Source: Paraphysomonas bandaiensis
Lineage: Eukaryota > Protista > Chrysophyceae
DNA length: 64,000 nucleotides
Direction: 5' to 3'
Assembly: GCA_965644295.1 (NCBI GenBank)
Contig: CBFFRP010000354.1
Coordinates: forward strand, 62,001 to 126,000
Both the position numbers and the translations under genes were made by a program. This document shows, one piece after another, positions 11,301 through 62,528 of this stretch. The notes beneath the pieces were generated by a model. The model did not search any database and was not told the origin of the DNA. It saw only the letters and a program-made list of their open reading frames with translations. Position 1 is the first letter of the stretch. Each line of letters opens with the position of its first letter.

Positions 11301-11400
11301 TTTATATGTTAATACTAATTTTGTAAAGTGAGCAATGTGTATAATCCTCAGTCAGGTTCCAGCTAATAATAATGATGTGAGTTATATCTTCCTGCAAAGA

Positions 11401-11533
11401 CGTATCGGCATCCTTTGTATATTTTTGCTAATATTGAGACAACAATTATCTGTATTCTAGCCGTAGTTGTATTTCAGTAATATAGAGGATTTTTGCTTCA
11501 ATTTATTCCCGAAAAATAAGATGCTGACTGCCG
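11401..11533 (+). repeat. Interspersed ~140-bp repeat family, copy 1 (internal deletion)
   Basis: cgtatcggcatcctttgtatatttttg...ctaatattgagacaacaattat...cgaaaaataagatgc shared with copies at 28169, 30814 (inverted) and 47859. Confidence 0.9.
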
Positions 11534-11642
11534 CTACATGGCTGCTCTGGCTGTATGCTGCTGTATGATGCTCTATAGAGCAGAGCTACTCCGCTTACAT
11601 ATGCAGTATATGTACACTGATATATGTAGGAATCGGATCATA

Positions 11643-11647
11643 GTATT
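11643..11647 (+). other. 5-bp target site duplication GTATT (partner at 16638-16642)
   Basis: ...catagtatt|cgcagag...ctctacg|gtattatg... Confidence 0.92.
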
Positions 11648-11935
11648 CGCAGAGAAAAATACGGTACTCGGTCGAATGTTACGGATGTTACAAATCAATA
11701 AACGGACGGAATACCCCCGTTGCTTTCACACAGTCTACACTACAGGTAGTCAAAGCAAGGTTCTCTTTATAGTTTACTACAGAACTTCTCAGTAAGAGGA
11801 AATTATGCCTCTATTCTACAGCCGTACACTACACACTGCATAATATAACACCATACACCTCTATGTGCCCTATGCATATCTTATACAGTCACTTCAAGTA
11901 CTAAACTGAAAAGAACATCCTCTCATTCCTCTACG
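11648..11935 (-). repeat. 3' LTR (288 bp)
   Basis: Matches 16350-16637 base for base by eye; element-strand termini 5'-CGTAGAG...CTCTGCG-3'. Confidence 0.95.
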
Positions 11936-11944
11936 CACCCCTGT
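11936..11944 (-). other. Putative short polypurine tract
   Basis: Element strand reads ...acaggggtg immediately before the 3' LTR, just after the pol stop codon. Confidence 0.55.
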
Positions 11945-11951
11945 GATGTGT

Positions 11952-14900
11952 CTACTCGTTCCCAACGATCAGACATATCAAATGACGAAACAATTTTCCT
12001 TGTAGGGGTTTAGTCAGCACATCAGCCAACATCTCTCCTGTAGGTAAGTACTGAAGCTTCACGTCTCCCCTATCATGGTGTTCTTCGACTAAAGCCTGCC
12101 TTACTCGTAGATATTTCGATCGGTATTTGCCTCCTCCTTTCGTTACGAGACTGAGATTCGACAAGTTGTCCTGATAAATAACAGGTGGGTCAAGCGCATA
12201 GCCCTGCCCACACACAAACTCATGTAATCTCATTGCATTAGACATCATATCAGATAGGCCGACCAGCTCGGATTCGGTCGAGTCTTTCGTCACGATTCGT
12301 TGCTTAGTTGATCGGCATAGTACTGTGGCCCCTCCAAGCTGTACAACTACGCCTGTATGCCCTTTTCCGTCTTCGTGGGTGGCGAACGAAGCGTCGATGA
12401 AGCTTCTTACCCGCAGCTGCTCTCCAATCTTCAGCTGCAGATCTTGATCCCTTGTGTGCGCAAGGTATTTCAGCACTCGATTCAACTTCTGCTGATCTCC
12501 GATTGTCGGACCCTTCACTCTTGTTGTGAGGTACGCTATACTGAGCAGGATGTCTGGTCTAACTCTTATTGACAGATATAGCAATTTGGCCACCACTGAA
12601 TGGAAATTGGCAGCCTCCTTCCTCCCCAATTTCTGTCCTGCGCCCTCTGCGAACAGTGATGATGTCGCTGGAGATGCTGCTCTGCCAGTGACCGCTGCCT
12701 CCTCCAGCACTCCGTCTAGGTAAGCCCTCATTGACACCACTGCCCTGTCATCTATCATGCTCACATGCATACCTAAATACGACATGTCTTTGTCATCACA
12801 GTATTTTACCTCACCATATTGTTTCTTTAGTTGTTCCACCAACCACTCGGTGTCACGCTTGTCTTGTGATAGCACTAGCAGATCGTCCACGTGTAGTGTT
12901 ATAGTGCACTGCTTGCCGTTGACAGTCCTATTGAGAACACACTGATCCACCGGGTTAGCCACGAAACCAATGCTTTCCAGGTAAGCTCTTATCGTGTCAT
13001 ACCAGAGCTTTGCGCTCTGCACGCATCCATATAACGCTTTGTCTAGGCGCACCAATATTTTGCCTCTTTCATCAACATACGGCTGGATTGTGGGGTCTAG
13101 TTTTCCGAGTATTGTGGCCAACATCGGCTCCAATTCCATTATTACCTCTTCGCCTGACATCTCCGCATTGAGGTATGCACCACCTATATCAATTGTCGAT
13201 ACATGTCTCCCCTCTCTCGCTGCTATTGCTAGGCATGCAAATACTGACTGTATGTCCACAGTGGGTGACGACGTGTCTGGGTACAGTTTCCGGTCCTGCT
13301 GTGCCCCGTTCGCAACCAGCCTCGCCTTGATTTTCTCGAACCTTCCGAGTCCGTCGTATTTCGTCTTCAAGAACATCAGCGATCGAATTGTTCGTTTGAG
13401 TTGAGTCTTTGATAGGTCACTCCGGTGTACTGGGACTATCGCCTTTTTTTCATGCAGCAGCTGCTTCAGCTCCCTTACTATCGCCAGGTAGGCTTCTTTG
13501 CCGTGTTCCTTTAAACCTTTGGTTACGCTTGTGTGATAGGCTCGATACATTACGGGCTTTCTTCTTGTGCCTGCCGCTATCCTTGCTCCGGCTGATGATG
13601 ATGATGATAGTAGTTCGCTTGTGTTATGTGTCATCCCTGCAGTTTCCACCCCTGTAATTTCCGGATCGTCGATGTCGTTGGGTGTTGCAGCGCCCGGTTC
13701 CTGTTCGCTCGGCCCATCAGCCCTGTCGCCATCATCGTCGACTAGTTCCGTGATTTTTGTTCTCTCTCTCTTTTCTGTGTGGCCGTGCCCTTCGTCTGTG
13801 TCAATGGCTGTCATCTGCCCCTCCTCGTGAGGCTCCTTCGGCTTATCGATCTCGTCATTCTCAGCTGGTGGCGTGGTATCCTCGATCTCTCGACTCTCAT
13901 TCTCGCTGGTCGTGACAGGTGAGTGTGACTTGTTGTGCAATGACGATATTCTATTCACGGCGTCTATTACTATTTGCGTGGTCACCATCTTCACCCAGTT
14001 GGTCCTACTCACATATTTATTTGTTTTAAGGTTTAAAAATATCCAACTCCCGTTTGCGTTGCCGGATGGGTACAGCGCGATACATGGTTCTGTTCTGGCC
14101 TGCTCCGCGTTATTGCTCTTGACCTTCGGGTCATAACATTCAACATAGTCCCCGAAAGCCAGTGACAGTTCCTTTTTATAATTGGGTTTCCGACCAGTCA
14201 ATGCCACTCGCGGTGCTACAGTTGTGCCATTGGTGGATGGCCTCCTCAAGTTCATGCGGCTGTTGGCGTATCTCACCAGGTCTCTGACGTTGGCATCTGG
14301 TAGGTTCCATGGTAGCCCTGAATGTACACTGCGTATTGTCTCTTTGAGTCTCCTAATCTTCGCGTCGATCTTGTCCAGGTGATCTCCAGCCCCTGCCACG
14401 TCAATCTCCATCCCTGTGATCTTGCCTCTCAGGGCCTTGAATCCCGGCTGAGGGTCCAGGTAGGTAACTGTCGGTATGTACCCGTAGCTTCTTAACAGGT
14501 TTACTTGTTCCTGTAGGGCCAATCCCAACTGATCCGTTGTTTCGTTTTCGAGTGAAGTAACGATGGTTAGTCCCAATGGTTCCGCTAGCGTGAGCATGAA
14601 CGATTGCTGTCTCACACTGAAGATGTCTGTGTACAGCCTTTGCTCCTTCTGCTGTTCTGCCTTCAGTTCCGGATCCGCGTATTGCCGGCTGACTTTCTTA
14701 TTCGTCTGCTTGCCTCTCACCGCTTCGAACGGTCTCCCATATATGTCAAAAGCTCTTCTGATATCACTCGGGGTAAGTCGCACCCCTGTAACGTTTCCGT
14801 CGCTCACTAGCTGCACAGCATCTCTCTCCGAGTCGAAGCCCGAGTTTCGGATCAGGTCTCGTGCTTCTCGCGCTCTCGCGACTTCTACTTTCGAATATTG

Positions 14901-16337
14901 GGCTTCGCGCTCCGCTACAGTCGTTACGTTGACTTTGGCCGTCGCCCAGTCGCGCATGTCGGCCACATACATCTTGTTCTTTCGATAGAAAGTCAAATCA
15001 CTGTCAGGTAAGTGCACAGTGAAAGACTCTCCCTGCCTATATGTCACTTCATATATGTCTTCTACGTCCGCCTGACATAGTACGCTTGCCCTTAGCTCAT
15101 CTGCTGTCTTACAGGTGAAGAATTGGTCTAGCTCGCCTACATTCGGTAGTTCCAGTGCGTGTCCCGATAATCCCGCCACGGTGCATCCTTTGTACGCCGG
15201 TCTTACATTGTTCAGTAGTCTTGGGTGTACTACCGAGACATCCGCCTGGTTGTCGAGTAATACCTCGTACCATTGGAATGGCTCGCTTCCTGACGTGAAG
15301 GCGTTCAACATTGTTGTCGTGCAGTGCTTGTTTTCTGATTCTTGGCTACTGTCTGGGCATTCGTTCATTCTGTGGCCTGGCTCACCGCAGCCCCAACATA
15401 TGAGCTGCCTTTTTTTTTGACCACGTTTGCTGTTGTGCGACTTCGTGTCGTTCCCTTGTTGCTGCTCTGGTGTATCATCGCTATCTGCTGATTTCTTGCC
15501 TTTGTCAGACTTCGATTTGCTCACGAATGCGGATCCGCCGCCTGCTCTCGTTGCTCTCTTCGGCGTTAGATATTTTGATGCTTTAGTATATATTTCATTT
15601 ACGTGTGTAGGTGCTGCTTGCGTGCCCATTGTTAGATCGTTGAGATAGCTAGTTTTGAAATCGCCATATCTCATGTCGTCCAGCCCTTCGAAGAAATCCA
15701 TCGCGATGTCCTCTTCATTCATTTCCGCGTTGTTCATGTCTTTGTAGGCTTCTAATAGATGATCAAACCTCTCCTTATAAGTAACTATACTCTCATATGC
15801 TCCCTGTTTAGCGTCTTTGTACCTTTTCCTCGCTTCTGCTCGTACCACTGTACTTACGCTGGAGTTAGTGGATACTTTGTGGGTTTGTTTGATAGCCAGC
15901 CATAGTAGTAGAGGATCCTTAGTCCTGTTCATGAGCTCGTATTCATCTAATAGCTTGACTGCATCCATTGATTCGTGGCTCAGATGGTCTACCATGAATG
16001 AGTAGAATGCCGATCTATCGTTCCGCATCTTGTCTATTAATCTCCCTCTGGTCTTGGTCTTGTCCTTCATCAGGTCGAGGTTAACTCCATAGGGGTCGTC
16101 TTCCAAATCAAAATCCTCTGGGTTTATCGCATCGGGCTCATAATATTTGTCCAGCTCTACTAGGCGTGCAAGATCACCGTACTTTTGCATGCCCACCACT
16201 ACAAGCCTCTGTTTGAATGTGGCGAAGTTCGAGTTGGCACCGTATCTTAAAGTCGGTACATGTTCTGGTCTATCGGTGCTCGGTTTCTTGCCGAATCTTG
16301 CAAATCTTGTTGGCTTGTCGTTCGTTGTCTTCTTCAT
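11952..16337 (-). CDS. Copia Gag-Pol polyprotein (Gag zinc knuckle, aspartic protease, integrase, RT, RNase H)
   Basis: CWGCGEPGHRMNEC (CCHC); VLLDNQADVSVV (PR); LYTDIF / YLDPQPGF / HLDKIDAKIRRLKE (IN core); KARLVANG, DIGGAYLNA, KALYGCVQS, LHVDDLL (RT); FIDASFA, STESELVG, YQDN, MLADVLTKPL (RNase H). Confidence 0.97.
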   Translation of the reverse strand: MKKTTNDKPTRFARFGKKPSTDRPEHVPTLRYGANSNFATFKQRLVVVGMQKYGDLARLVELDKYYEPDAINPEDFDLEDDPYGVNLDLMKDKTKTRGRLIDKMRNDRSAFYSFMVDHLSHESMDAVKLLDEYELMNRTKDPLLLWLAIKQTHKVSTNSSVSTVVRAEARKRYKDAKQGAYESIVTYKERFDHLLEAYKDMNNAEMNEEDIAMDFFEGLDDMRYGDFKTSYLNDLTMGTQAAPTHVNEIYTKASKYLTPKRATRAGGGSAFVSKSKSDKGKKSADSDDTPEQQQGNDTKSHNSKRGQKKRQLICWGCGEPGHRMNECPDSSQESENKHCTTTMLNAFTSGSEPFQWYEVLLDNQADVSVVHPRLLNNVRPAYKGCTVAGLSGHALELPNVGELDQFFTCKTADELRASVLCQADVEDIYEVTYRQGESFTVHLPDSDLTFYRKNKMYVADMRDWATAKVNVTTVAEREAQYSKVEVARAREARDLIRNSGFDSERDAVQLVSDGNVTGVRLTPSDIRRAFDIYGRPFEAVRGKQTNKKVSRQYADPELKAEQQKEQRLYTDIFSVRQQSFMLTLAEPLGLTIVTSLENETTDQLGLALQEQVNLLRSYGYIPTVTYLDPQPGFKALRGKITGMEIDVAGAGDHLDKIDAKIRRLKETIRSVHSGLPWNLPDANVRDLVRYANSRMNLRRPSTNGTTVAPRVALTGRKPNYKKELSLAFGDYVECYDPKVKSNNAEQARTEPCIALYPSGNANGSWIFLNLKTNKYVSRTNWVKMVTTQIVIDAVNRISSLHNKSHSPVTTSENESREIEDTTPPAENDEIDKPKEPHEEGQMTAIDTDEGHGHTEKRERTKITELVDDDGDRADGPSEQEPGAATPNDIDDPEITGVETAGMTHNTSELLSSSSSAGARIAAGTRRKPVMYRAYHTSVTKGLKEHGKEAYLAIVRELKQLLHEKKAIVPVHRSDLSKTQLKRTIRSLMFLKTKYDGLGRFEKIKARLVANGAQQDRKLYPDTSSPTVDIQSVFACLAIAAREGRHVSTIDIGGAYLNAEMSGEEVIMELEPMLATILGKLDPTIQPYVDERGKILVRLDKALYGCVQSAKLWYDTIRAYLESIGFVANPVDQCVLNRTVNGKQCTITLHVDDLLVLSQDKRDTEWLVEQLKKQYGEVKYCDDKDMSYLGMHVSMIDDRAVVSMRAYLDGVLEEAAVTGRAASPATSSLFAEGAGQKLGRKEAANFHSVVAKLLYLSIRVRPDILLSIAYLTTRVKGPTIGDQQKLNRVLKYLAHTRDQDLQLKIGEQLRVRSFIDASFATHEDGKGHTGVVVQLGGATVLCRSTKQRIVTKDSTESELVGLSDMMSNAMRLHEFVCGQGYALDPPVIYQDNLSNLSLVTKGGGKYRSKYLRVRQALVEEHHDRGDVKLQYLPTGEMLADVLTKPLQGKLFRHLICLIVGNE

Positions 16338-16350
16338 AATTTCCTCTTAC
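16335..16350 (-). other. Non-tRNA primer-binding site, perfectly complementary to LTR-internal 16494-16509 (putative self-priming)
   Basis: + strand cataatttcctcttac (16335-16350) is the exact reverse complement of gtaagaggaaattatg (16494-16509); no TGG-starting tRNA-complementary PBS. Confidence 0.75.
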
Positions 16351-16637
16351 GCAGAGAAAAATACGGTACTCGGTCGAATGTTACGGATGTTACAAATCAA
16401 TAAACGGACGGAATACCCCCGTTGCTTTCACACAGTCTACACTACAGGTAGTCAAAGCAAGGTTCTCTTTATAGTTTACTACAGAACTTCTCAGTAAGAG
16501 GAAATTATGCCTCTATTCTACAGCCGTACACTACACACTGCATAATATAACACCATACACCTCTATGTGCCCTATGCATATCTTATACAGTCACTTCAAG
16601 TACTAAACTGAAAAGAACATCCTCTCATTCCTCTACG
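16350..16637 (-). repeat. 5' LTR (288 bp)
   Basis: Identical to 11648-11935; TATA-like TTATATTA on the element strand at ~16543-16550. Confidence 0.95.
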
Positions 16638-16854
16638 GTATTATGTAGGAATATTCCTACAGTGTATACCTGGTATACAAGGCATGTGATATCCACCCAT
16701 GTCCCAATATACGAATATATAGTACGTAGGACATGATCTGCATGTCACTCCGATATGCTGTGGCCTCATCTGCATCTATTCATACCAAAACAAGCATTAT
16801 AACACAAGATCATAATTATTATATATCAACATCTTCATTAAACAACAAGATATT

Positions 16855-18319
16855 ATGCCATTCATCTCTACAAAAGAAGAGATTGAGAGATTCCTGGTAG
16901 CTAATCCGGATTGTAAGATAAGGATCATATCTGGAGATGAGCTGCAGAAGATTCGTCGCATTCTCCCAAAAGAATGGACAAAGAGACGCCTCAACAATAA
17001 ATCAGTATTCGTTGAAATGTACCTTGAAAATGACAATAACGAGCGTGCCTATTATGAGGGACCTTTATTGGTAAAGGATAAGAAGATTTGGCGTAATGGG
17101 GTGGGCAATACACTTATGCTCTCCGGCCTCTGGAAAGGAAGATGCTTAATTGGTGTCAATAGAATCACAGATACGGCCAAAGCTTCCGATAATGTGTCAT
17201 TTGTATGGACAGAAAGCTGCGAAGTGTGGAGTCGTAACGTGTTCGACTGGTACCTTAGTAAATTAGCAACGGAGTCCACAAAAATGAGCAATGACGAAGA
17301 GTTAAAGGAACTGACTACAAAGCCATTCAATATATTTAATGTTGAACTTACTGCTGATGGCATCAAAGAAGAACAAAACGTTCGCCTTGATTTCAAATAT
17401 CATACTTCCGTGATGTCTACCTGGATTGGATATAGTTTACGTCGTGTATATCCTATCCAGAATGAGCAGAACCACAATGGCAGACAATCTTCAATATCTA
17501 CAGCAATACCCGCTCGGCCACGGGTATGCTTGTTTTATACTTCAGCTGCTATGAATTAACGATGTACTGCAAATTGTTTAGAATTCTGTGGCTAACAATG
17601 GAAACCAAACCCGAGTCATTCAACATGAGGAGCCGTCTTCAGATCCAGGCCAGTTGGCGTCTCCAGTAGGACCCATCCAACTGCAAGTATGTTTGTTTTA
17701 TACTTCAGCTGCTATAAATTAATGATGTACTGCAAATTGTTTAGAATTCTGCGGCTAACAATGGAAACCAAACTCGAGTCATTCAACATGAGGAGCCGTC
17801 TTCAGATCCAGGCCAGTTGGCGTCTCCAGTAGGACCCATCCAACTGCAAGTATGTTTGTTTTATACTTCAGCTGCTATAAATTAATGATGTACTGCAAAT
17901 TGTTTAGAATTCTGCGGCTAACAATGGAAACCAAACTCGAGTCATTCAACATGAGGAGCCGTCTTCAGATCCAGGCCAGTTGGCGTCTCCAGTAGGACCC
18001 ATCCAACTGCAAGTATGTTTGTTTTATACTTCAGCTGCTATAAATTAATGATGTACTGCAAATTGTTTAGAATTATGTCGTAAACAATGGAGAGGGGAGT
18101 GAATTAAGACGGCGGAATCAATGGGATATTTTGCTAGATAACTTCACGGCAGTCGACACGGAGATTAAGGTTTTGAAGCAAAAGAAGAGATATCTGGAAA
18201 CGGAAATTGGGAATATTGATAAAAAGCTACAAGTATGCGAAGAATTGAGAAAAAAAATGAAGGTCGTGGAGAAATCAGTTTGCGAGATGAATAATACATT
18301 CAAAACAGTAAGGAGGTAG
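16855..18319 (+). CDS. Hypothetical protein with three tandemly duplicated 35-aa exons and a C-terminal coiled coil
   Basis: Exon 16855-17523; phase-0 introns 17524-17581, 17687-17744, 17850-17907, 18013-18070; repeated exon NS(V/A)ANNGNQTRVIQHEEPSSDPGQLASPVGPIQLQ; last exon continues in frame into ORF 18131..18319. Confidence 0.75.
17524..18070. repeat. 163-bp tandem repeat (58-nt intron + 105-nt exon), ~3.4 copies
   Basis: Units start at 17524, 17687, 17850 and 18013 and are nearly identical. Confidence 0.95.
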
Positions 18320-28044: not shown

Positions 28045-28168
28045 GTAATGAGATTATCATGATATCTATAACTCAATTCACAGTAGAGTATGTATGATCT
28101 GGGTCACACCTCACTTGACCTCTCTTAATTATCATATCAGTGTGGATATTCGAATGTGGACAGCAGCA

Positions 28169-28314
28169 CGTATCGGCATCCTTTGTATATTTTTGTTCAA
28201 AGATGCCTCTAATATTGAGACAACAATTATGTGTATTTCAGCCGTATTTATACTGCAGTTTTATAGACTAATTTTGCTTCAATATATTTCCGAAAAATAA
28301 GATGCTGACCGCCG
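28169..28314 (+). repeat. Interspersed ~140-bp repeat family, copy 2
   Basis: Aligns to 11401, 30814 and 47859 copies; contains stem ggcatcctttg (28175-28185) / caaagatgcc (28198-28207). Confidence 0.9.
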
Positions 28315-30813: not shown

Positions 30814-30949
30814 GCATCTTATTTTTCGGAAATATATTGAAGCAAAACTCCAACTATACTCTCTATACAAGTACGGCTAGAATACAGATAATTGTTGTCT
30901 CAATATTAGAGGCATCTTGGAACAAAAATATACGAAGGATACTGATACG
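30814..30949 (-). repeat. Interspersed ~140-bp repeat family, copy 3 (inverted)
   Basis: gcatcttatttttcggaaatatattgaagcaaaa...ataattgttgtctcaatattagaggcatcttggaacaaaaatatacgaaggatactgatacg is the reverse complement of the family consensus. Confidence 0.9.
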
Positions 30950-31219
30950 AAATAATTGCTAAATTCTGAATTGAAGACCGTGAAGAAGTGACGAAAATTT
31001 TAAGATTCGTGGAAGTGAATATCCATATATGTGTAGCATGTATCATACATAGAGATACATACATAGGAAGCTTTGATATGTTGCTATGATCAGTGTAAGT
31101 ATCCTCTATATATATGCAAGTACAGGTACATGTATATGACTATATATATGATTATCATATACACATAGATGTAAACTAACTCTATATCATTTTATTGTTA
31201 TTGAATTGATAATAACATC

Positions 31220-34200
31220 ATGTCTGATGATAAAATTGATGTAATCCGTCGGGCAGTGAAGCAGGCTAGATGGGAAATAGCTCATAAATCAGAATTTATA
31301 TCATCTACAGCTACATTGTCTGCTCCGACCATATCATCCAATACTTCTACTGTTCCTGGGCAGTGTATAGGCGTATCTCCTATGCAGAGATCAATTAATA
31401 AGATGGATATGGATAAACATGCTTTAGTTACTGATACTGATGATTCAAACTCAGTGACTTCTGTGTTTTGTAATGGATATGATGCGTTAGATGTTGCATC
31501 GACTGCAATTGAGGAACCACCACGAACTACAATTGGCACTGCAAATGGATCACTGAACAATAGCGGTGGTGATGAAGTTATAAATAAAACGACAAGATCT
31601 GTGCCAGCGCTGCTGTCCAACCACCTGTCGTTTGCTGTGGTGAAATCGAAAGACAACTTGCACCATCGGCAACATGTGTCAGTTTCCAATAGTGCGTCTT
31701 GGGCAGAACTGACACACAGCATTGCTAAATGCCTGAAACTTTACTCGCCCACATCAGTTTTAGAAATGGAGCTTGTTAATTGTAATGGTGACATATTGAG
31801 TTCTAACATTGCTTGTGCAGTCAAGTTTTTTAATGTCATTGCCAGTTATGAGGAGGGTATGATGTTTCGTGTTGCGATTGATGACGCGACGGAAGTGGAG
31901 CTCGCTAAAGCTAATGCTGTGGAAGAATTCCACTCTCGTGGTCTCTGCCTCACAATACGTAATGCGGAAAGCGGGGAGATAAAACCCATATATTCTCGCC
32001 GTGGCTGTACATGGCAAGAGCTGACCAGTGCTATTGCGGAGGAGTTTACTGATGTCTCTCCACAATGGATCATGCATATCGTTCTAGAAGATGCTGATGA
32101 AGATGAGATCAGTCCTCCACTAAACACTGCCGAGATATTCTGGCAGTTTTGTCGTTCTGCGTCGGCTTACAATGGTGATGTTTTTGTGTTCACCTTAGAT
32201 CAGCAACGAAGAGATAGTGATGTTTCATTAGCTAGTTGTGTGAGGGTGTGTGCCCAGGTCCAGTGTGCTGAGAATCTCAGACCCAAGTCATCAAAGGAAT
32301 ATGTTATGATCCCGCGAGAGTGTAGTTGGAATGATATCAGACGTCACGTTGCATTGGTTTTTCCTGGTAGCATTAAGCACGAAGAATGTATATCCCATAT
32401 GGTGATGGTTAACACGTATGGAGACAGTATTAGTACTTCTATCAACGAAGATCTCACATTCTGGAAGTTCATGAGCACATATGAGCACGATGTGGACATG
32501 ACTCTTTGTATATTCTTGGAGTGGCAAACGACTAGAGTGTGTGAATGCGAATATTCTCATGATACTTGCCGCGCTTCAGTAGCGCATTTTAAAGCGTGCA
32601 TAGCAAACAGTCTAATTGCAGAGACGACAGATATATATCTTCCCATCAACTGTAGCTGGGAGGAACTCTCCAACGAATTGGCATCGTTCATGGGTCTAGC
32701 AGACACATCGTGGATCGATTATATTATTTTTTTGGATGTCGATGGTGACCCTCTTAGTCCGTCAGTGAACACTGACGCCAAGTTCTGGAAGCTCGGAAAA
32801 AAACTGAGCGATAAGGAGGGCGTGATAATCAGTATTCACCTCAAGTCCGATGTATGTCAAAATATTAGGAAAGATGTGATTGTCGCTGATGCATTCTCCT
32901 TCTGTGTTCGATGGAACGCGGATCTCAACAGAACTGCAATCGCTTGTGCAACTCCAGACTGCAGCTGGAGCGATATCTGTCAACGCGCTTCCCATGCCCT
33001 GGAATTGGAAGTCCCAGATAGTGCATTTCACATGGTTCTCGTGAATAAGGAAAATGGAAATATCATCAGTCCCCCTATTGAAACAGTCGAAATGTTCTGG
33101 CAATTTTATAAAAAAATGGCTAGTACCTCTGCCTTTGATTTGTACCAGGATGAGGCCATGATGACGGGAGTCATTTCCGAGAGTGCGAAACTGCATAACT
33201 TACAAGAAAATTGCCTGGCAGAGCTTACTGTTCAACATTCATTTATTTGTAAAGTGTACGACAGTACCAGCACAGCTTATGACCCTTTTCAGATTAGTAT
33301 TGGCCTCAACTGCTGTTGGGATGACATTATTGTAGCAGCCGTGTCTTGCGTCGGACGTATCGAGGTTGACGACATCGATTACTTGCAGCTTGTGGATGCA
33401 AATGGCCTTCATTTGAGCGTACCTATCAACAACTCGAGATTATTTTGGAAACTTGGTAATAGTCTAGGGCCATCATCTGGATACATATTTGAGATACATT
33501 TGACCCACTGCGGCAGCCCCACTAAAAGTATAGAGATGGCACATAAGAAGCCCGTGACTGTAATTAATGTAGCCCTGGGAAAAGATAAACCGGATGAGGC
33601 TAGAATTCCATCGAACGCATGTTGGAATGATATTTTGGATTCGATTGCAGGAGCTGTTTCAAGTAGAGTTATTACGTCTCACATGATAGGCTATGTTGTT
33701 TTGTACGATGTGGAGGGGAGCCAGCTGAGTCCAATACTCGATACCGCCGATAAGTTCTGGGCAGTAGTGCCGATTTATAATGCGCAAGAGTCTATGGTAT
33801 TTTTGATCACGCTCAACAACAATGAAATAAGGTGTGTTGTGGATACGAAAGTAGACGCTGCTGTTGTGGAGCCTGAGGAGCTAATTCCTCTGGTATTGGC
33901 GGGTGGTGTGAATACTCGAGTGCCGATCCACATATCGCATGATATATCGTGGGATATATTGTGCGAAAAAGTGCGAGAAGTATTTGGGATAAATCGTAGT
34001 ATGCGTGTCAGCTTGTTTCTTGCAGATGCAGAGCTAGATGAGCTGAGTCCGGCCATCACCAACGTCGAAAAGTTTTGGAAAATATTTTTAAATAACTTCA
34101 AAGCCAGTACTGGTGCGGTGTTTGTGGTTCACATTTCCAATATACAGGAACCCAATGGAAAATCTCACACTTTATCTCATTATGCTAGCTCAGCGGCTAA

Positions 34201-36691
34201 ACAGTATGAGGGTCGTGCGTTTCGCTCCAATGACCCTGTGCTGGTAGCTGAGTTTTTCAAGTCATGTGAAAGTATTCAAGATATACATTTGCATGTGGAC
34301 GAGAGAGGTGTAGACCCTAATGCACTAAACGAAAACAAGAGTGCAGTGATGCACTTCGCCTGCATGAGCGGCAATCTCGAAGTTGCGAAAGCGCTGTATG
34401 ACCGGGGAGCAGATCCGAATCGTATCAATTCAGCTGGGATGACTCCATTTGACTGTGCATGCATTGCTGGGCACATTGATATCTGTATATGGCTCTTCAG
34501 TTTAAAGTGCGTGGACTCATGTTCCAATTACACAGAGTCTGGAGATGTAGCTACTCCTCCACTGCATCTGGCAGCAACTAATGGACATACGGATATAGTT
34601 GCCTGGCTTATGAAAAATGCTTTTGACAAAGAAATTAGAGGTCGTTTCGATACCACTGCCGTCATGGAGGCCGCGCATAACGGACAATTGGCGTCCGTTG
34701 TGGCATTAGTGGAAGCAGGTGCAGATGTATGTGCTTGTGATAGCAAAGGGGTGACGGGATTTCTTCTGGCTTGTTCCGAGGGACATCTAAGTGTTGCCAA
34801 GTATCTTCATTCCAAAGGCGTTCAAGCAAATAGCGCTGACAAGAATGCAAAGTCTGCATTTATGTATGCCTGCTGTGGTGGACAACTGGAAGTGGCTCAG
34901 TGGCTGGTGAGTGTTGGGGCCAACTATCGTGCCATTGGTGGACGTTATGACATGCTGAATACCCCTGTGCACATGGCAGCCCAGAGCGGCAATGTGGATC
35001 TTTTGCGGTGGCTAGTCGAAGATCTACATCTTGAACCCTGTAGTTTGAATGGAAAAGGTGCATCCGCAATTGCCTTCGCTCGGGCCGCAGGAAGGCCTGC
35101 AGCAGAAGCATATCTGTGCAAGTTTAATGGAAATAGATATTGTTTATATAGCACAGTGGAATGCTTGGATTTAGCTTTAAGCGAGAACAATTTTACATAT
35201 GCCAAAACTATTCTTGAGAGGATAGTTAACAGCGACTCCGATAATATTCAACTCCCTTACGGCACTTCTTCTCTACACTATGTTGCTGCATCTGGTCACA
35301 CTGAACTTGCACAATTTCTTATTATAAAAGGCACCAACGTGAATGTAGAGTCTGCACTTAGGCGTACACCTCTGCACTATGCCGCTTTTAAGGGGCACAT
35401 CGAAATGTGCAAGTACTTATTTAGTGTGGGTGCCAACCTTAATGCTAAAGATGTATATGGCTACACTGGCCTAACCATAGCATCGACAAATAATGACACC
35501 GAACTTATGAACTGGTTTACAACTGTAGCTATGGATTCCCCCGATTCGCAACCGTTTGTTGAACTTGAGGAGTCCAATGGGTCCTCCTTATTTGGTTGTA
35601 TAGGCCAGTCGTCTTTTACGAGAAGCGCGTTAATAGAGTTTCGCGATTGTAATTCGACTCTTACTAGTACAACAGAACAGCAAGGAGAATGTGGCACTCC
35701 CAGCTCTGATGTTCAGCTGTCACCATTCAGCACTGCTTTACAAAATGCATGCATTGTAGGAGACCTGGAACACGTAAAGTCGCTTGTGGAGGGCGGCGCC
35801 CAATTAAATGGTAAACTTGGGCCGGAGGAATTATCTCCACTTCACTGTGCGGTCATTTCAGGAAACCTTAGTTTAGTGCAGTTTCTTTTCAATATGGGTG
35901 CACATCTGAATGCTCAGAATATTAATGGATCCGCCGATTTCGACGGAAGCAGTAGTGTACACGAGGCAATGACACCTCTTCATATAGCTTGCGATAAGAA
36001 AGATGAGAGTATGATAATGTTTTTGATAAAGAATGGCGCTGATATGTACAAAATGAACAAAGTTGGTGACACACCGTTACATATTTTATGCTTGCTGGGA
36101 ATGCATATTGTCTTAACGCAAATTATTGATCTACCTCGTTCCGTTGTTCCTGGCATAAATCTGGATGTTCGATCTAGTCATTTGCTTAACCTATTGCACT
36201 GCGCTGCAGATGCGGGATCTTTGCCAACAGTGCAACTTTTAATTGACCATGAGGTTGCTGTGAACTCATTTGATGATGAAAAAAAAACTCCGCTACATTA
36301 TGCTTGTGGTAAGGGTGCGCTAGATGTGGTGCAGCTTCTTGTCACTAGTGGCGCCATTGTCGACCTTCAAGACACCTCAAGCAGAACTCCTTTTTTATAT
36401 GCCTGCAACTCGGGAAATCTGGACATGGTGGAGTACCTTGCTCACCAAGGAGCTCGCCTGGACTGTAAAACTGATAAAGGAAACAATGCACTGCATATTG
36501 CATGCAAATCAGGATTTCTACACGTGGCCAAGTGGCTGGTATCGAATGGGGTGGACCCATTGGGACAGAATCGTAGTGGTAATTTACCAGCACACTATGC
36601 TCAAGTGAACGGATATATCGAAGTGGTACAGTGGCTTGAGATGACAACTAAAGTAAAGATTTCGGTTAAGCCGAAGGATATCCCACGCTAG
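31220..36691 (+). CDS. 1823-aa single-exon protein: eight tandem ~100-aa PB1/ubiquitin-like domains followed by many ankyrin repeats
   Basis: Repeating (S/T)W.(E/D)L....A.....L.D.DGD.LSP.INT..KFW units in the N-terminal half; TPLHYAA, TPLHIAC and NALHIAC ankyrin consensus in the C-terminal half. Confidence 0.9.
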   Translation: MSDDKIDVIRRAVKQARWEIAHKSEFISSTATLSAPTISSNTSTVPGQCIGVSPMQRSINKMDMDKHALVTDTDDSNSVTSVFCNGYDALDVASTAIEEPPRTTIGTANGSLNNSGGDEVINKTTRSVPALLSNHLSFAVVKSKDNLHHRQHVSVSNSASWAELTHSIAKCLKLYSPTSVLEMELVNCNGDILSSNIACAVKFFNVIASYEEGMMFRVAIDDATEVELAKANAVEEFHSRGLCLTIRNAESGEIKPIYSRRGCTWQELTSAIAEEFTDVSPQWIMHIVLEDADEDEISPPLNTAEIFWQFCRSASAYNGDVFVFTLDQQRRDSDVSLASCVRVCAQVQCAENLRPKSSKEYVMIPRECSWNDIRRHVALVFPGSIKHEECISHMVMVNTYGDSISTSINEDLTFWKFMSTYEHDVDMTLCIFLEWQTTRVCECEYSHDTCRASVAHFKACIANSLIAETTDIYLPINCSWEELSNELASFMGLADTSWIDYIIFLDVDGDPLSPSVNTDAKFWKLGKKLSDKEGVIISIHLKSDVCQNIRKDVIVADAFSFCVRWNADLNRTAIACATPDCSWSDICQRASHALELEVPDSAFHMVLVNKENGNIISPPIETVEMFWQFYKKMASTSAFDLYQDEAMMTGVISESAKLHNLQENCLAELTVQHSFICKVYDSTSTAYDPFQISIGLNCCWDDIIVAAVSCVGRIEVDDIDYLQLVDANGLHLSVPINNSRLFWKLGNSLGPSSGYIFEIHLTHCGSPTKSIEMAHKKPVTVINVALGKDKPDEARIPSNACWNDILDSIAGAVSSRVITSHMIGYVVLYDVEGSQLSPILDTADKFWAVVPIYNAQESMVFLITLNNNEIRCVVDTKVDAAVVEPEELIPLVLAGGVNTRVPIHISHDISWDILCEKVREVFGINRSMRVSLFLADAELDELSPAITNVEKFWKIFLNNFKASTGAVFVVHISNIQEPNGKSHTLSHYASSAAKQYEGRAFRSNDPVLVAEFFKSCESIQDIHLHVDERGVDPNALNENKSAVMHFACMSGNLEVAKALYDRGADPNRINSAGMTPFDCACIAGHIDICIWLFSLKCVDSCSNYTESGDVATPPLHLAATNGHTDIVAWLMKNAFDKEIRGRFDTTAVMEAAHNGQLASVVALVEAGADVCACDSKGVTGFLLACSEGHLSVAKYLHSKGVQANSADKNAKSAFMYACCGGQLEVAQWLVSVGANYRAIGGRYDMLNTPVHMAAQSGNVDLLRWLVEDLHLEPCSLNGKGASAIAFARAAGRPAAEAYLCKFNGNRYCLYSTVECLDLALSENNFTYAKTILERIVNSDSDNIQLPYGTSSLHYVAASGHTELAQFLIIKGTNVNVESALRRTPLHYAAFKGHIEMCKYLFSVGANLNAKDVYGYTGLTIASTNNDTELMNWFTTVAMDSPDSQPFVELEESNGSSLFGCIGQSSFTRSALIEFRDCNSTLTSTTEQQGECGTPSSDVQLSPFSTALQNACIVGDLEHVKSLVEGGAQLNGKLGPEELSPLHCAVISGNLSLVQFLFNMGAHLNAQNINGSADFDGSSSVHEAMTPLHIACDKKDESMIMFLIKNGADMYKMNKVGDTPLHILCLLGMHIVLTQIIDLPRSVVPGINLDVRSSHLLNLLHCAADAGSLPTVQLLIDHEVAVNSFDDEKKTPLHYACGKGALDVVQLLVTSGAIVDLQDTSSRTPFLYACNSGNLDMVEYLAHQGARLDCKTDKGNNALHIACKSGFLHVAKWLVSNGVDPLGQNRSGNLPAHYAQVNGYIEVVQWLEMTTKVKISVKPKDIPR

Positions 36692-47800: not shown

Positions 47801-47858
47801 GGTTTAAATGATGTGAGTATATCAGTGACTTGTAATCTATGTTCCATATATGTATGTT

Positions 47859-47995
47859 GTATCAGGCATCCTTTGTATATTTTTGTTGAAAGATGCCTCT
47901 AATATTGAGACAACAATTATGTGTATTCCAGCCGTATATGTATTGCAATTATATAGAGTAATTTTACTTCAATTTATACCCGAAAACTAAGATGC
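47859..47995 (+). repeat. Interspersed ~140-bp repeat family, copy 4
   Basis: gtatcaggcatcctttgtatatttttgttgaaagatgcctctaatattgagacaacaattat...cgaaaactaagatgc. Confidence 0.9.
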
Positions 47996-48370
47996 TCTGA
48001 TTGGATCATATCTATCTCTATATGTGTAACCGGATGTAGAGCCGGATGTATTACGGGATCTGTAGCCAGTTGGATTTAGAATGATAATGTCCGTAAGAAT
48101 ACGGGGGAGTTAAATATCCAATCATAATGATGTATTTCATATTTATTCGTTTACATTGCACATATCGTATACGGGAGGTAACTAACGGACATGAACCAAT
48201 GGACATGCTTTTCACTATAGAAGCCGCCCATCTAGACGAAGAATATGCAGCCATTATGGCATTGTTCCTTACAACATGCTCTAATGTACGATCTTTACTA
48301 TATCAACACTTTGTATTGAAGAATGCTATCATACAAGTAACTAAAGTGCAAAACATAACCATTCAAGTCA

Positions 48371-61280: not shown

Positions 61281-62528
61281 ATGCTTTATACTTTGATTGT
61301 AGCAGTGTTATGGGTCATTCAGGGTGTTGGAGGGTTGCTTATTGAAGACGTTTACATTCCAATGGACTGTCACAGTAAGTACTATTGTACTGACATTGCA
61401 AATGGGATAACGTATTTCACCCATAGAGCACGCGTCCCCTTCCGACCATCTTTTGATGTATTTAGTTTGTGCTATATTTGATTTTCGTTGACTTTGTTTG
61501 CAGAGAATTTGTCGTGAAGCAGAGCAACGGTGAGGTGATCAAGCCTGTATACAAGAAACCTGGCAATTTGTTTCATGTTTTGTTAGAACAGTCGGTAAGA
61601 CTTCATATTTTGAATGATATATATAATTCCAACGTTCTAGGATGCCCCTGTTCATAGAGCTCTAAAGGGAATGTGCGAGAACGGCACCCGCATTATGACA
61701 TGGGAAAATGGACATGAGCTAAACTTAGCCCCACTTCCAGTGTCGAAATATGCTGTAGAGAATATTGACGAAAGTATTACTGTAGAAATAACTCTCCAAC
61801 ACATCACTCCGCAAGTGGATTACCAAGTGTTTAACTTATTTAAAATGGGGAATATCTCCCAGGTGATGACAATGGTTGAGGAACATAAAGGAGTGAATGC
61901 TATGGACGAATGGGGAACCACACTGCTTATGCAAGCGACGAAAAAAGGAAACCTTCCCGTAGTGGCAGCCTTACTGAACACACGCATGCCAAAAGTAGAT
62001 ATCAACATGGCGAAATCTGTGAGTTATCAAGTGCTTGTACGCTGTGCATGTCTAAAATGTTCTTAGAACGGATACACGGCACTTTTTTATGCCGTTGAGC
62101 TCCACACCACAAATATTCTCAAGGCTTTGCTCAGAAGAGGAGCAAACCCCAATGTAGCATTAACACAGAAGGTTCATTTTATATTGTATGTTCTTTTGGC
62201 TGTTCATATATTCCCTGCATAGGATGCTGTTGGAAGTACACCTCTACATTTCGCTTGTATGCTTGAAAAATCGAAGCATGCGGAACTGCTTCTGGAATAC
62301 GGTGCGGATGTAATGGCAGTCAATGAACACGGACAGTATCCGTTGCAGCTCTTGCCACGTGATGCTGTGACGTCCACGAAGCTATACTTCAAACGCATGT
62401 TCGAGGTTTGTCATCAAAATTTCTTGTTTCGTTAGGATCTTTACTGTCTATTACTTCAGGATGCTTTGGCACGAAAGGAAAAAGAATGGAACGCTGCCAA
62501 TGGTAAAACTGCTAGAAATGATCTTTAA
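61281..62528 (+). CDS. Signal peptide + degenerate FKBP-like domain + ankyrin repeats, C-terminal RNDL (possible ER retention)
   Basis: MLYTLIVAVLWVIQGVGG; DCHKHASPSDHLLIEF and RALKGMCENGTRIMTW resemble ER FKBPs; WGTTLLMQA, GYTALFYA and GSTPLHFAC are ankyrin repeats; ends ARNDL* at TAA 62526-62528. Confidence 0.75.

Follow-up and report, generated by a model that had tools for sequence, protein, structure and literature searches.

A Copia-type retrotransposon of Paraphysomonas bandaiensis with CG…CG termini, its D-D-D integrase clade and a predicted self-primer

Introduction

TG…CA termini are typical of canonical Copia long terminal repeat (LTR) retrotransposons, though not obligatory for the superfamily, and the reason why integrases require a CA-3′ end has been described as poorly understood (10.1101/137141, PMC5659011; these and all other papers cited here were available in part, and what is attributed to them holds for those parts). 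The 64,000-nucleotide stretch of Paraphysomonas bandaiensis DNA analysed here (the window: contig CBFFRP010000354.1 of assembly GCA_965644295.1, forward-strand positions 62,001 to 126,000) contains an intact Copia-type LTR retrotransposon of 4990 bp on the minus strand (11648–16637), in which TG…CA is absent and the repeats read CG…CG instead. The locus raises the question whether such ends belong to one copy or to a lineage and, if to a lineage, what else in the element has changed with them. Our reading, to which we give a probability of about 0.6, is that the element represents a Copia clade combining CG ends with an Asp-Asp-Asp (D-D-D) integrase, in which replacement of the catalytic Glu by Asp likely aids the joining of a 3′-G and whose members are likely primed from their own RNA.

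Element boundaries and alleles

The features that define the insertion are as follows.
11643..11647, plus strand: left copy of the target-site duplication, GTATT (one GTATT only in the empty allele)
16638..16642, plus strand: right copy of the target-site duplication, GTATT (one GTATT only in the empty allele)
11648..11935, minus strand: 3′ LTR, 288 bp, CG…CG (repeat comparison)
16350..16637, minus strand: 5′ LTR, 288 bp, CG…CG (repeat comparison)
11936..11943, minus strand: polypurine tract and 2-nt tail (CAGGGGTG), directly upstream of the 3′ LTR

The two LTRs are identical (288/288 bases) and mismatch at the first base outside each end; the repeat itself thus sets the ends at CG and CG. On the element strand the termini read CGTAGAG…CTCTGCG, a 6/7 inverted repeat, and GTATT lies flush against both. 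With two LTRs, a polypurine tract and a 5-bp target duplication (within the expected 4–6 bp), the element has the features of Ty1/Copia. These boundaries had been called in a first-pass annotation, which also expected an empty allele with a single GTATT, and all of these points held. Contigs from two of the four sequencing runs examined, X3 and X9, connect 11642 to 16638 and omit 4995 bases, i.e. the 4990-bp element and one 5-bp copy of GTATT, with a junction overlap of 5 in X3 and 3 in X9; the two runs come from different studies and carry different organism labels. The filled allele is present in runs X1 and X5, both possibly the source sample. The site is thus polymorphic for the insertion, whose ends are established without reliance on the repeat. 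We conclude that it is a young, recent insertion with CG…CG ends and a GTATT target duplication.

Nine contigs of X3 diverge from the reference at 16637–16641, directly past the CG (4 + 2 + 3, one of them an internal junction), and unitigs start at 16350/16351 in X1, X3 and X12. The earlier expectation that other copies would also end in CG was largely borne out by these junction contigs and by the distant relatives described below, with the exception of one X12 contig that reads CA. In four runs the element is covered ∼10–20 times as deeply as its flanks, which, although depth is no copy number, suggests a multi-copy family. Seawater and marine metagenomes contain close matches, six RNA runs contain 0.15–0.37 of the searched words, and no relatives were found in a viral contig collection.

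An integrase with aspartate in place of the catalytic glutamate

The polyprotein and the residues at issue are located as follows.
11952..16337, minus strand: single gag-pol open reading frame, 1461 aa (P0001), with gag, CCHC, protease, integrase, reverse transcriptase (RT) and RNase H
13938..14945, minus strand: integrase, residues 465–800; retroviral integrase fold, without HHCC zinc ligands
12681..13388, minus strand: Copia-type RT (RVT_2), residues 984–1219; Pfam E 1e-26 (1.1e-26), above cut-off
14625..14627, minus strand: Asp571, first catalytic residue
14454..14456, minus strand: Asp628, second catalytic residue
14364..14366, minus strand: Asp658, where the catalytic Glu would be expected; counterpart of Ty1 integrase Glu190 in a profile alignment

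Within the single polyprotein the integrase fold (residues ∼560–715) precedes RVT_2, as in Ty1/Copia. The triad consists of D571, D628 and D658 and is thus not of the D-D(35)-E type. All three residues are conserved, with Asp at position 658 in 77 of 79 homologue rows, one D-D-D homologue being labelled Chaetoceros sp. GSL56. In a profile alignment, Asp658 lies opposite Glu190 of Ty1 integrase (PDB 7z0h; E 0.013, numbering counted from the alignment). In a structure model (predicted local distance difference test score, pLDDT, 90), the first triad residue lies on strand 1, the second follows strand 4 and the third sits on the helix that comes after strand 5. The model is matched by cores of retroviral integrases (Foldseek E 5e-11; Z 14.1 and a root-mean-square deviation of 2.6 over 149 residues). 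Pfam rve matched none of 43 integrase rows. As to the HHCC zinc finger, residues 480–545 of the window protein contain neither His nor Cys, the 43 rows show no conserved set, and the CxxC of Ty1 aligns to non-Cys residues. The zinc finger is missing also from the sisters that retain the D-D-E triad, i.e. from both groups.

Terminal bases follow the third catalytic residue

Relatives were fetched from 78 metagenome loci and 12 loci in genome bins (L034 and L046 were not placed, and L082 duplicates L080). Loci L079–L090 are eukaryotic Copia elements inside bins labelled as bacterial genomes, probably through binning contamination. The LTR start was read after the polypurine tract, in several loci by hand. 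The end of RNase H is followed by a G-rich tract, usually ending GGGGTG, and then by the LTR, whose start falls into one of two groups, CGTTG-like or TGTTG-like; this split matches the third catalytic residue of the integrase. Among the 31 D-D-D clade loci with DNA at this place, the start is CG in 27, CC in two, unresolved in two and TG in none, whereas outside the clade (n=35) it is TG in 27 and probably in one more, CG in one (L077) and unresolved in six. At the other end of the LTR, among the 38 loci with a priming duplex of at least 10 nt (see below), the last base of U5 is G in 19/19 clade members (18 CG, one AG) and A in 19/19 others (18 CA, one TA). The change thus comprises one terminal base pair, CGTTG…CAACG in place of the canonical TGTTG…CAACA. 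The tail that follows the polypurine tract before the 3′ LTR of the window element is the same as that preceding TG in canonical relatives; since GGGGTG also stands before TG starts, a single terminal base pair has changed, with no shift of register.

Flanking DNA fixes the ends of the window element and of L004, L018, L075 and L010, the last of which has its own 5-bp target duplication, TCCAG. CG has been retained although CpG decay is visible in the older copies L010 and L004, and the two L010 LTRs show other CpG-type differences. In three clade members, L058 and L061 (CC start) and L003 (AG end), the terminal base pair is retained and the second base is variable.

In a tree of RT and RNase H, from which the integrase was excluded, the D-D-D rows form one clade (Shimodaira–Hasegawa-like approximate likelihood ratio support 99); with the root set on four distant Copia-like rows, this clade lies within the D-D-E rows. 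Because the D-D-D/CG branch sits among TG…CA relatives, CG is derived and arose once. RT divergence across the clade amounts to about one change per column. Locus L035, considered as a second origin of D-D-D, falls inside the single clade and was rejected as such. A target-site preference suggested by flanks starting with GTAT was likewise rejected, as such contigs match longer and are placed more easily. Together, these data support CG ends as a trait of the clade and not a quirk of one copy.

A predicted self-primer shared with canonical relatives

Two further features concern priming.
16335..16350, minus strand: primer-binding site of the predicted self-primer, made up of the final G of the 5′ LTR and the 15 bases that follow, the last of which form the start codon
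16494..16509, minus strand: predicted self-primer, LTR positions 129–144, perfect 16-nt complement of 16335–16350 (second copy at 11792–11807)

No TGG-type site for a transfer RNA (tRNA) primer follows the 5′ LTR, as judged from the sequence of the element alone. The gag-pol start codon lies 12 bases past the 5′ LTR, the window 5′ region folds with z = -3.9, and the predicted self-primer begins at a CA initiator-like site (LTR 129–130). A search of Rfam returned only a chance match. In a family variant at window position 16501, the sole listed variant inside the 16-nt primer, primer C becomes U opposite G and keeps a wobble pair. There is also a weak TATA-like motif at LTR 89–96.

The arrangement recurs among the relatives. 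Of the window element and the 78 metagenome loci together, 48 contain a gag start; six of these were excluded for missing upstream DNA or a wrong start (L007, L013, L026, L045, L063 and L074). In 36 of the remaining 42, the LTR sequence complementary to the bases after the 5′ LTR beats shuffles at p<=0.05 (a crude shuffle), and 39 contain a duplex of at least 10 nt. The 38-locus set leaves aside L004, L030 and L039, which have no 10-nt duplex, and L011, a mirrored match that was removed. Duplexes span 10–28 nt. The 38 primer sites are all different (mean identity 0.44), and exchanged primer/site pairs reach 10 nt in only 16 of 1406 cases; primer and site thus co-evolve. The 38/38 match of the loci to themselves is circular and carries no weight here. 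The primer starts at CA in 32/38 loci against 5.8 expected (the rows are not independent), which is as expected if the primer is the 5′ end of the RNA, as predicted.

In 16 of 18 D-D-D loci the last LTR base, a G, opens the duplex, which begins one base earlier in the other two. Among 17 D-D-E loci, 12 have a duplex that begins with the last LTR base, there an A, and three have one that begins one base earlier. The last LTR base therefore co-varies with the primer, as G:C versus A:U. The D-D-E loci L011–L080, which are TG…CA relatives, have the self-primer duplex and lack HHCC. As both groups have the duplex, self-priming predates the switch to CG. It is likely that a large stramenopile-associated group of Copia elements primes itself in the way these sequences predict.

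Proposed mechanism

In the mechanism that we propose, transcription would start at the CA of LTR 129–130, and the first ∼15 bases of the RNA would fold back onto the bases past the 5′ LTR. RNase H would free this ∼15-base fragment as the minus-strand primer, as in Tf1; we regard the self-priming step as a whole as very probable. The terminal C of the self-primer may template the joined G. The G-rich tract together with TG would prime the plus strand, so that U3 would begin with C, and both ends of the complementary DNA (cDNA) would finish in CG-3′. The D-D-D integrase would then join these 3′-G ends 5 bp apart, probably with a preference for G over A.

In foamy virus integrase, Glu221 binds metal B, which binds the viral 3′-OH (PMC3395085, PMC6784120). 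If the same holds here, the residue replaced in the clade would hold the 3′-OH of the terminal nucleotide, and it is plausible, by analogy, that the shorter Asp side chain could re-seat a terminal G. Whether Glu-to-Asp is itself causal is, in our estimate, slightly short of an even bet, and it would probably act with clade-specific neighbours, namely Asp652, the loss of Arg667 and Glu723. CG has been kept at both ends over a deep clade despite CpG decay, which argues for selection on G, and since the left end lies outside the self-primer duplex, such selection most likely stems from the integrase. More tentatively still, a D-D-D active site could join 3′-guanosine instead of 3′-adenosine through matched changes at four places: the first base of U3, the last base of U5, the last base of the self-primer and the catalytic Glu.

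Alternative explanations

Several observations weigh against this proposal. In sequence, the integrase matches that of Ty1 only weakly, and further integrase columns follow the D-D-D clade too: E723 (19/19 versus 3/24 outside), D652 (19/19 versus 4/24) and R667, lost from the clade (0/19 versus 21/24). The count of U5 ends is partly circular, since the rule by which they were read off the priming duplex was aware of CG and CA. Flanks are absent from most relatives, which are collapsed contigs, and the trees come from quick searches with no bootstrap. Individual ends also deviate. The outer 5′ end of L010 is TG, its inner copy reading CG, and the 5′ LTR of L004 ends in CA; both are putatively later CpG decay. 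A diverged X12 metagenome contig of depth 3.2 has C>T at 16350, i.e. CA at the junction of 5′ LTR and primer-binding site. The second base varies (L003, L058 and L061), and L077 combines an intact D-D-E integrase with CG…CA ends (LTR start ∼4674, end of U5 close to the start of gag). Its sister L066 has TG…CA, and L077 is possibly an intermediate between the two end types. Finally, CG ends and D-D-D arose once, in one event, and could be hitchhikers; with both changes on one branch, the tree does not establish a causal link.

The main rival draws on these points. The integrase could be merely tolerant of the terminal base. Drift would then have fixed CG a single time, the self-primer's G:C pair would keep the right end in place, and Glu-to-Asp would mark the branch without being connected to the ends. 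The single origin of CG and D-D-D, the CG start of L077 with its D-D-E triad and the AG and CC variants would all fit, as would the pairing of the last LTR base with the primer in 18/18 D-D-D duplexes and the many non-TGCA ends of plant Copia elements, which show no monophyly in the available part of PMC9804982. However, the duplex does not include the left end, and even so, of the 29 clade loci that can be read at the junction with the polypurine tract, not one begins with TG; this absence holds over ∼1 RT change per column against CpG decay, which would turn CG into TG or CA. We consider a tolerant enzyme with drift the less likely reading, though the most serious competitor of a G-preferring D-D-D integrase.

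A shift of register is far less probable. Here the cDNA would begin with TG (junctions TG|CG…CG|TA), two extra bases being trimmed from each end before joining. In the window, TG does precede the 3′ LTR and TA does follow the 5′ LTR, and retroviral integrases trim two bases (PMC3395085). But canonical relatives read GGGGTG|TGTTG, so that the TG is the tail of the tract, and every base of CGTTG…CAACG has its counterpart in the conserved LTR inverted repeat TGTTRNR…YNYAACA (PMC3601003). Trimming may still happen but leaves the origin of CG unexplained. A mutation or assembly error in one copy, for which only the low-depth X12 contig with CA at the internal junction speaks, is refuted by the identical LTRs, the empty site, the boundary common to other copies and more than 25 distant relatives with CG.

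The first-pass proposal of altered end recognition thus stands in part. CG is lineage-wide and the third catalytic residue of the integrase has changed, which fits altered end recognition; the new specificity itself is putative. Both changes arose on a single branch, and L077 has a CG start with D-D-E. The self-primer duplex, which takes in the last LTR base, had escaped the first-pass annotation.

Comparison with known systems

The window element shares with Ty1/Copia (Pseudoviridae) the order of protease, integrase, RT and RNase H, RVT_2, the 5-bp duplication, the polypurine tract and the core of the inverted repeat. It differs in its C:G terminal pair (T:A in Ty1/Copia), in a D-D(29)-D triad in place of D-D(35)-E, and in having no HHCC zinc finger and apparently no tRNA-type primer site. 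Among enzymes of the integrase fold, mariner D,D34D transposases also have a D-D-D triad by nature; unlike the window element, they belong to DNA transposons without LTRs or RT.

The clade presumably resembles the CoDi elements of diatoms (CoDiI/CoDiII), although no named CoDi sequence is among the matches. CoDi elements are, like the window element, stramenopile Copia of similar size. TG/CA is present in 23 of 26 CoDi families and reported missing in CoDi3.2, 4.2 and 4.3, as far as the available text of Maumus 2009 goes (PMC2806351); these three families may bear on the novelty of the CG clade.

The first-pass statement that integrated ends are almost universally CA was too strong. Plant non-TGCA Copia include Tos17 (TG…GA), AtRE1 (TA…TA), TARE1 (TA…CA), TGTT/AACA and the lotus types; in the surveys that describe them the LTRs start with T, save for AACA, and finish with A or T (10.1101/137141, PMC9804982, PMC5659011). 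They resemble the window element in their short LTRs (about 270–320 bp) and non-canonical ends, whereas the window clade has G at both joined ends, keeps the repeat palindromic and has ends that mark one deep clade. Zam-clade (errantivirus-type) Gypsy LTRs, which read AGTTA…TAATT/TAACT (PMC3601003), show a clade-wide departure from TG…CA as seen here, but belong to Gypsy and have a terminal T, not G.

The primer site of Tf1 also lies right after the 5′ LTR and is complementary to sequence within the LTR (PMC7175516), and self-priming has been predicted for TAR Copia (PMC6317226). Tf1/Tf2, Tcn1 and, by prediction, TAR/Houba Copia place the primer site as the window element does. In contrast to Tf1 (11 nt), the duplexes found here are of the lengths given above and include the last LTR base, in another lineage and other hosts. 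From fungal GalEa elements a primer site is missing too, but in another manner (PMC5445492). Nothing on termini was found in PMC8147415 or PMC12477816.

In the open literature searched (Repbase and subscription journals lay outside the search), we found no report of G at both joined LTR ends, of CG ends or of D-D-D LTR integrases. The CG/D-D-D Copia variant is real, clade-wide and apparently undescribed in that literature.

Because the sister groups D-D-E/TG…CA and D-D-D/CG…CG occur naturally, together with the possible intermediate L077, the end requirement can be tested by single swaps in enzyme and DNA, for which an intact, polymorphic and apparently multi-copy element offers a usable starting point. 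The group would also add a large stramenopile-associated set of Copia elements to the short list of likely self-priming ones. LTR finders that rely on the TGCA motif are expected, from their settings, to overlook such plankton families. If the switch at four places holds true, the contact that is conserved above all others in retroviral-type integration would have been remodelled in a widespread Copia clade of the plankton.

Other features of the polyprotein and the neighbourhood

Two further features lie in the gag-pol frame.
15354..15398, minus strand: Gag CCHC zinc knuckle, residues 314–328, below the Pfam cut-off
15240..15263, minus strand: candidate aspartic protease motif VLLDNQAD, read from the sequence

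We take VLLDNQAD to be the aspartic protease motif; it has no Pfam match.

The insertion is adjoined by a 247-aa open frame without a Pfam match (16816–17559, plus strand), which runs into a 163-bp tandem repeat of 3.4 copies (17524–18091). A dispersed repeat of ∼140 bp with GCATC…GATGC inverted ends occurs in four copies that are 80–90% alike (11400–11533, 28168–28314, 30814–30954 and 47853–47996); its depth is about 1000 times that of the flank, and it is likely a very high-copy element resembling a miniature inverted-repeat transposable element. Further along, an intronless frame of 1828 aa (31205–36691, plus strand) contains repeated N-terminal modules and, by eye, ankyrin-like repeats. 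A single neighbouring transporter gene, which by itself points to a likely ochrophyte stramenopile host and perhaps a chrysophyte, has its named close matches in ochrophytes (Ectocarpus, Mallomonas and Ochromonas).

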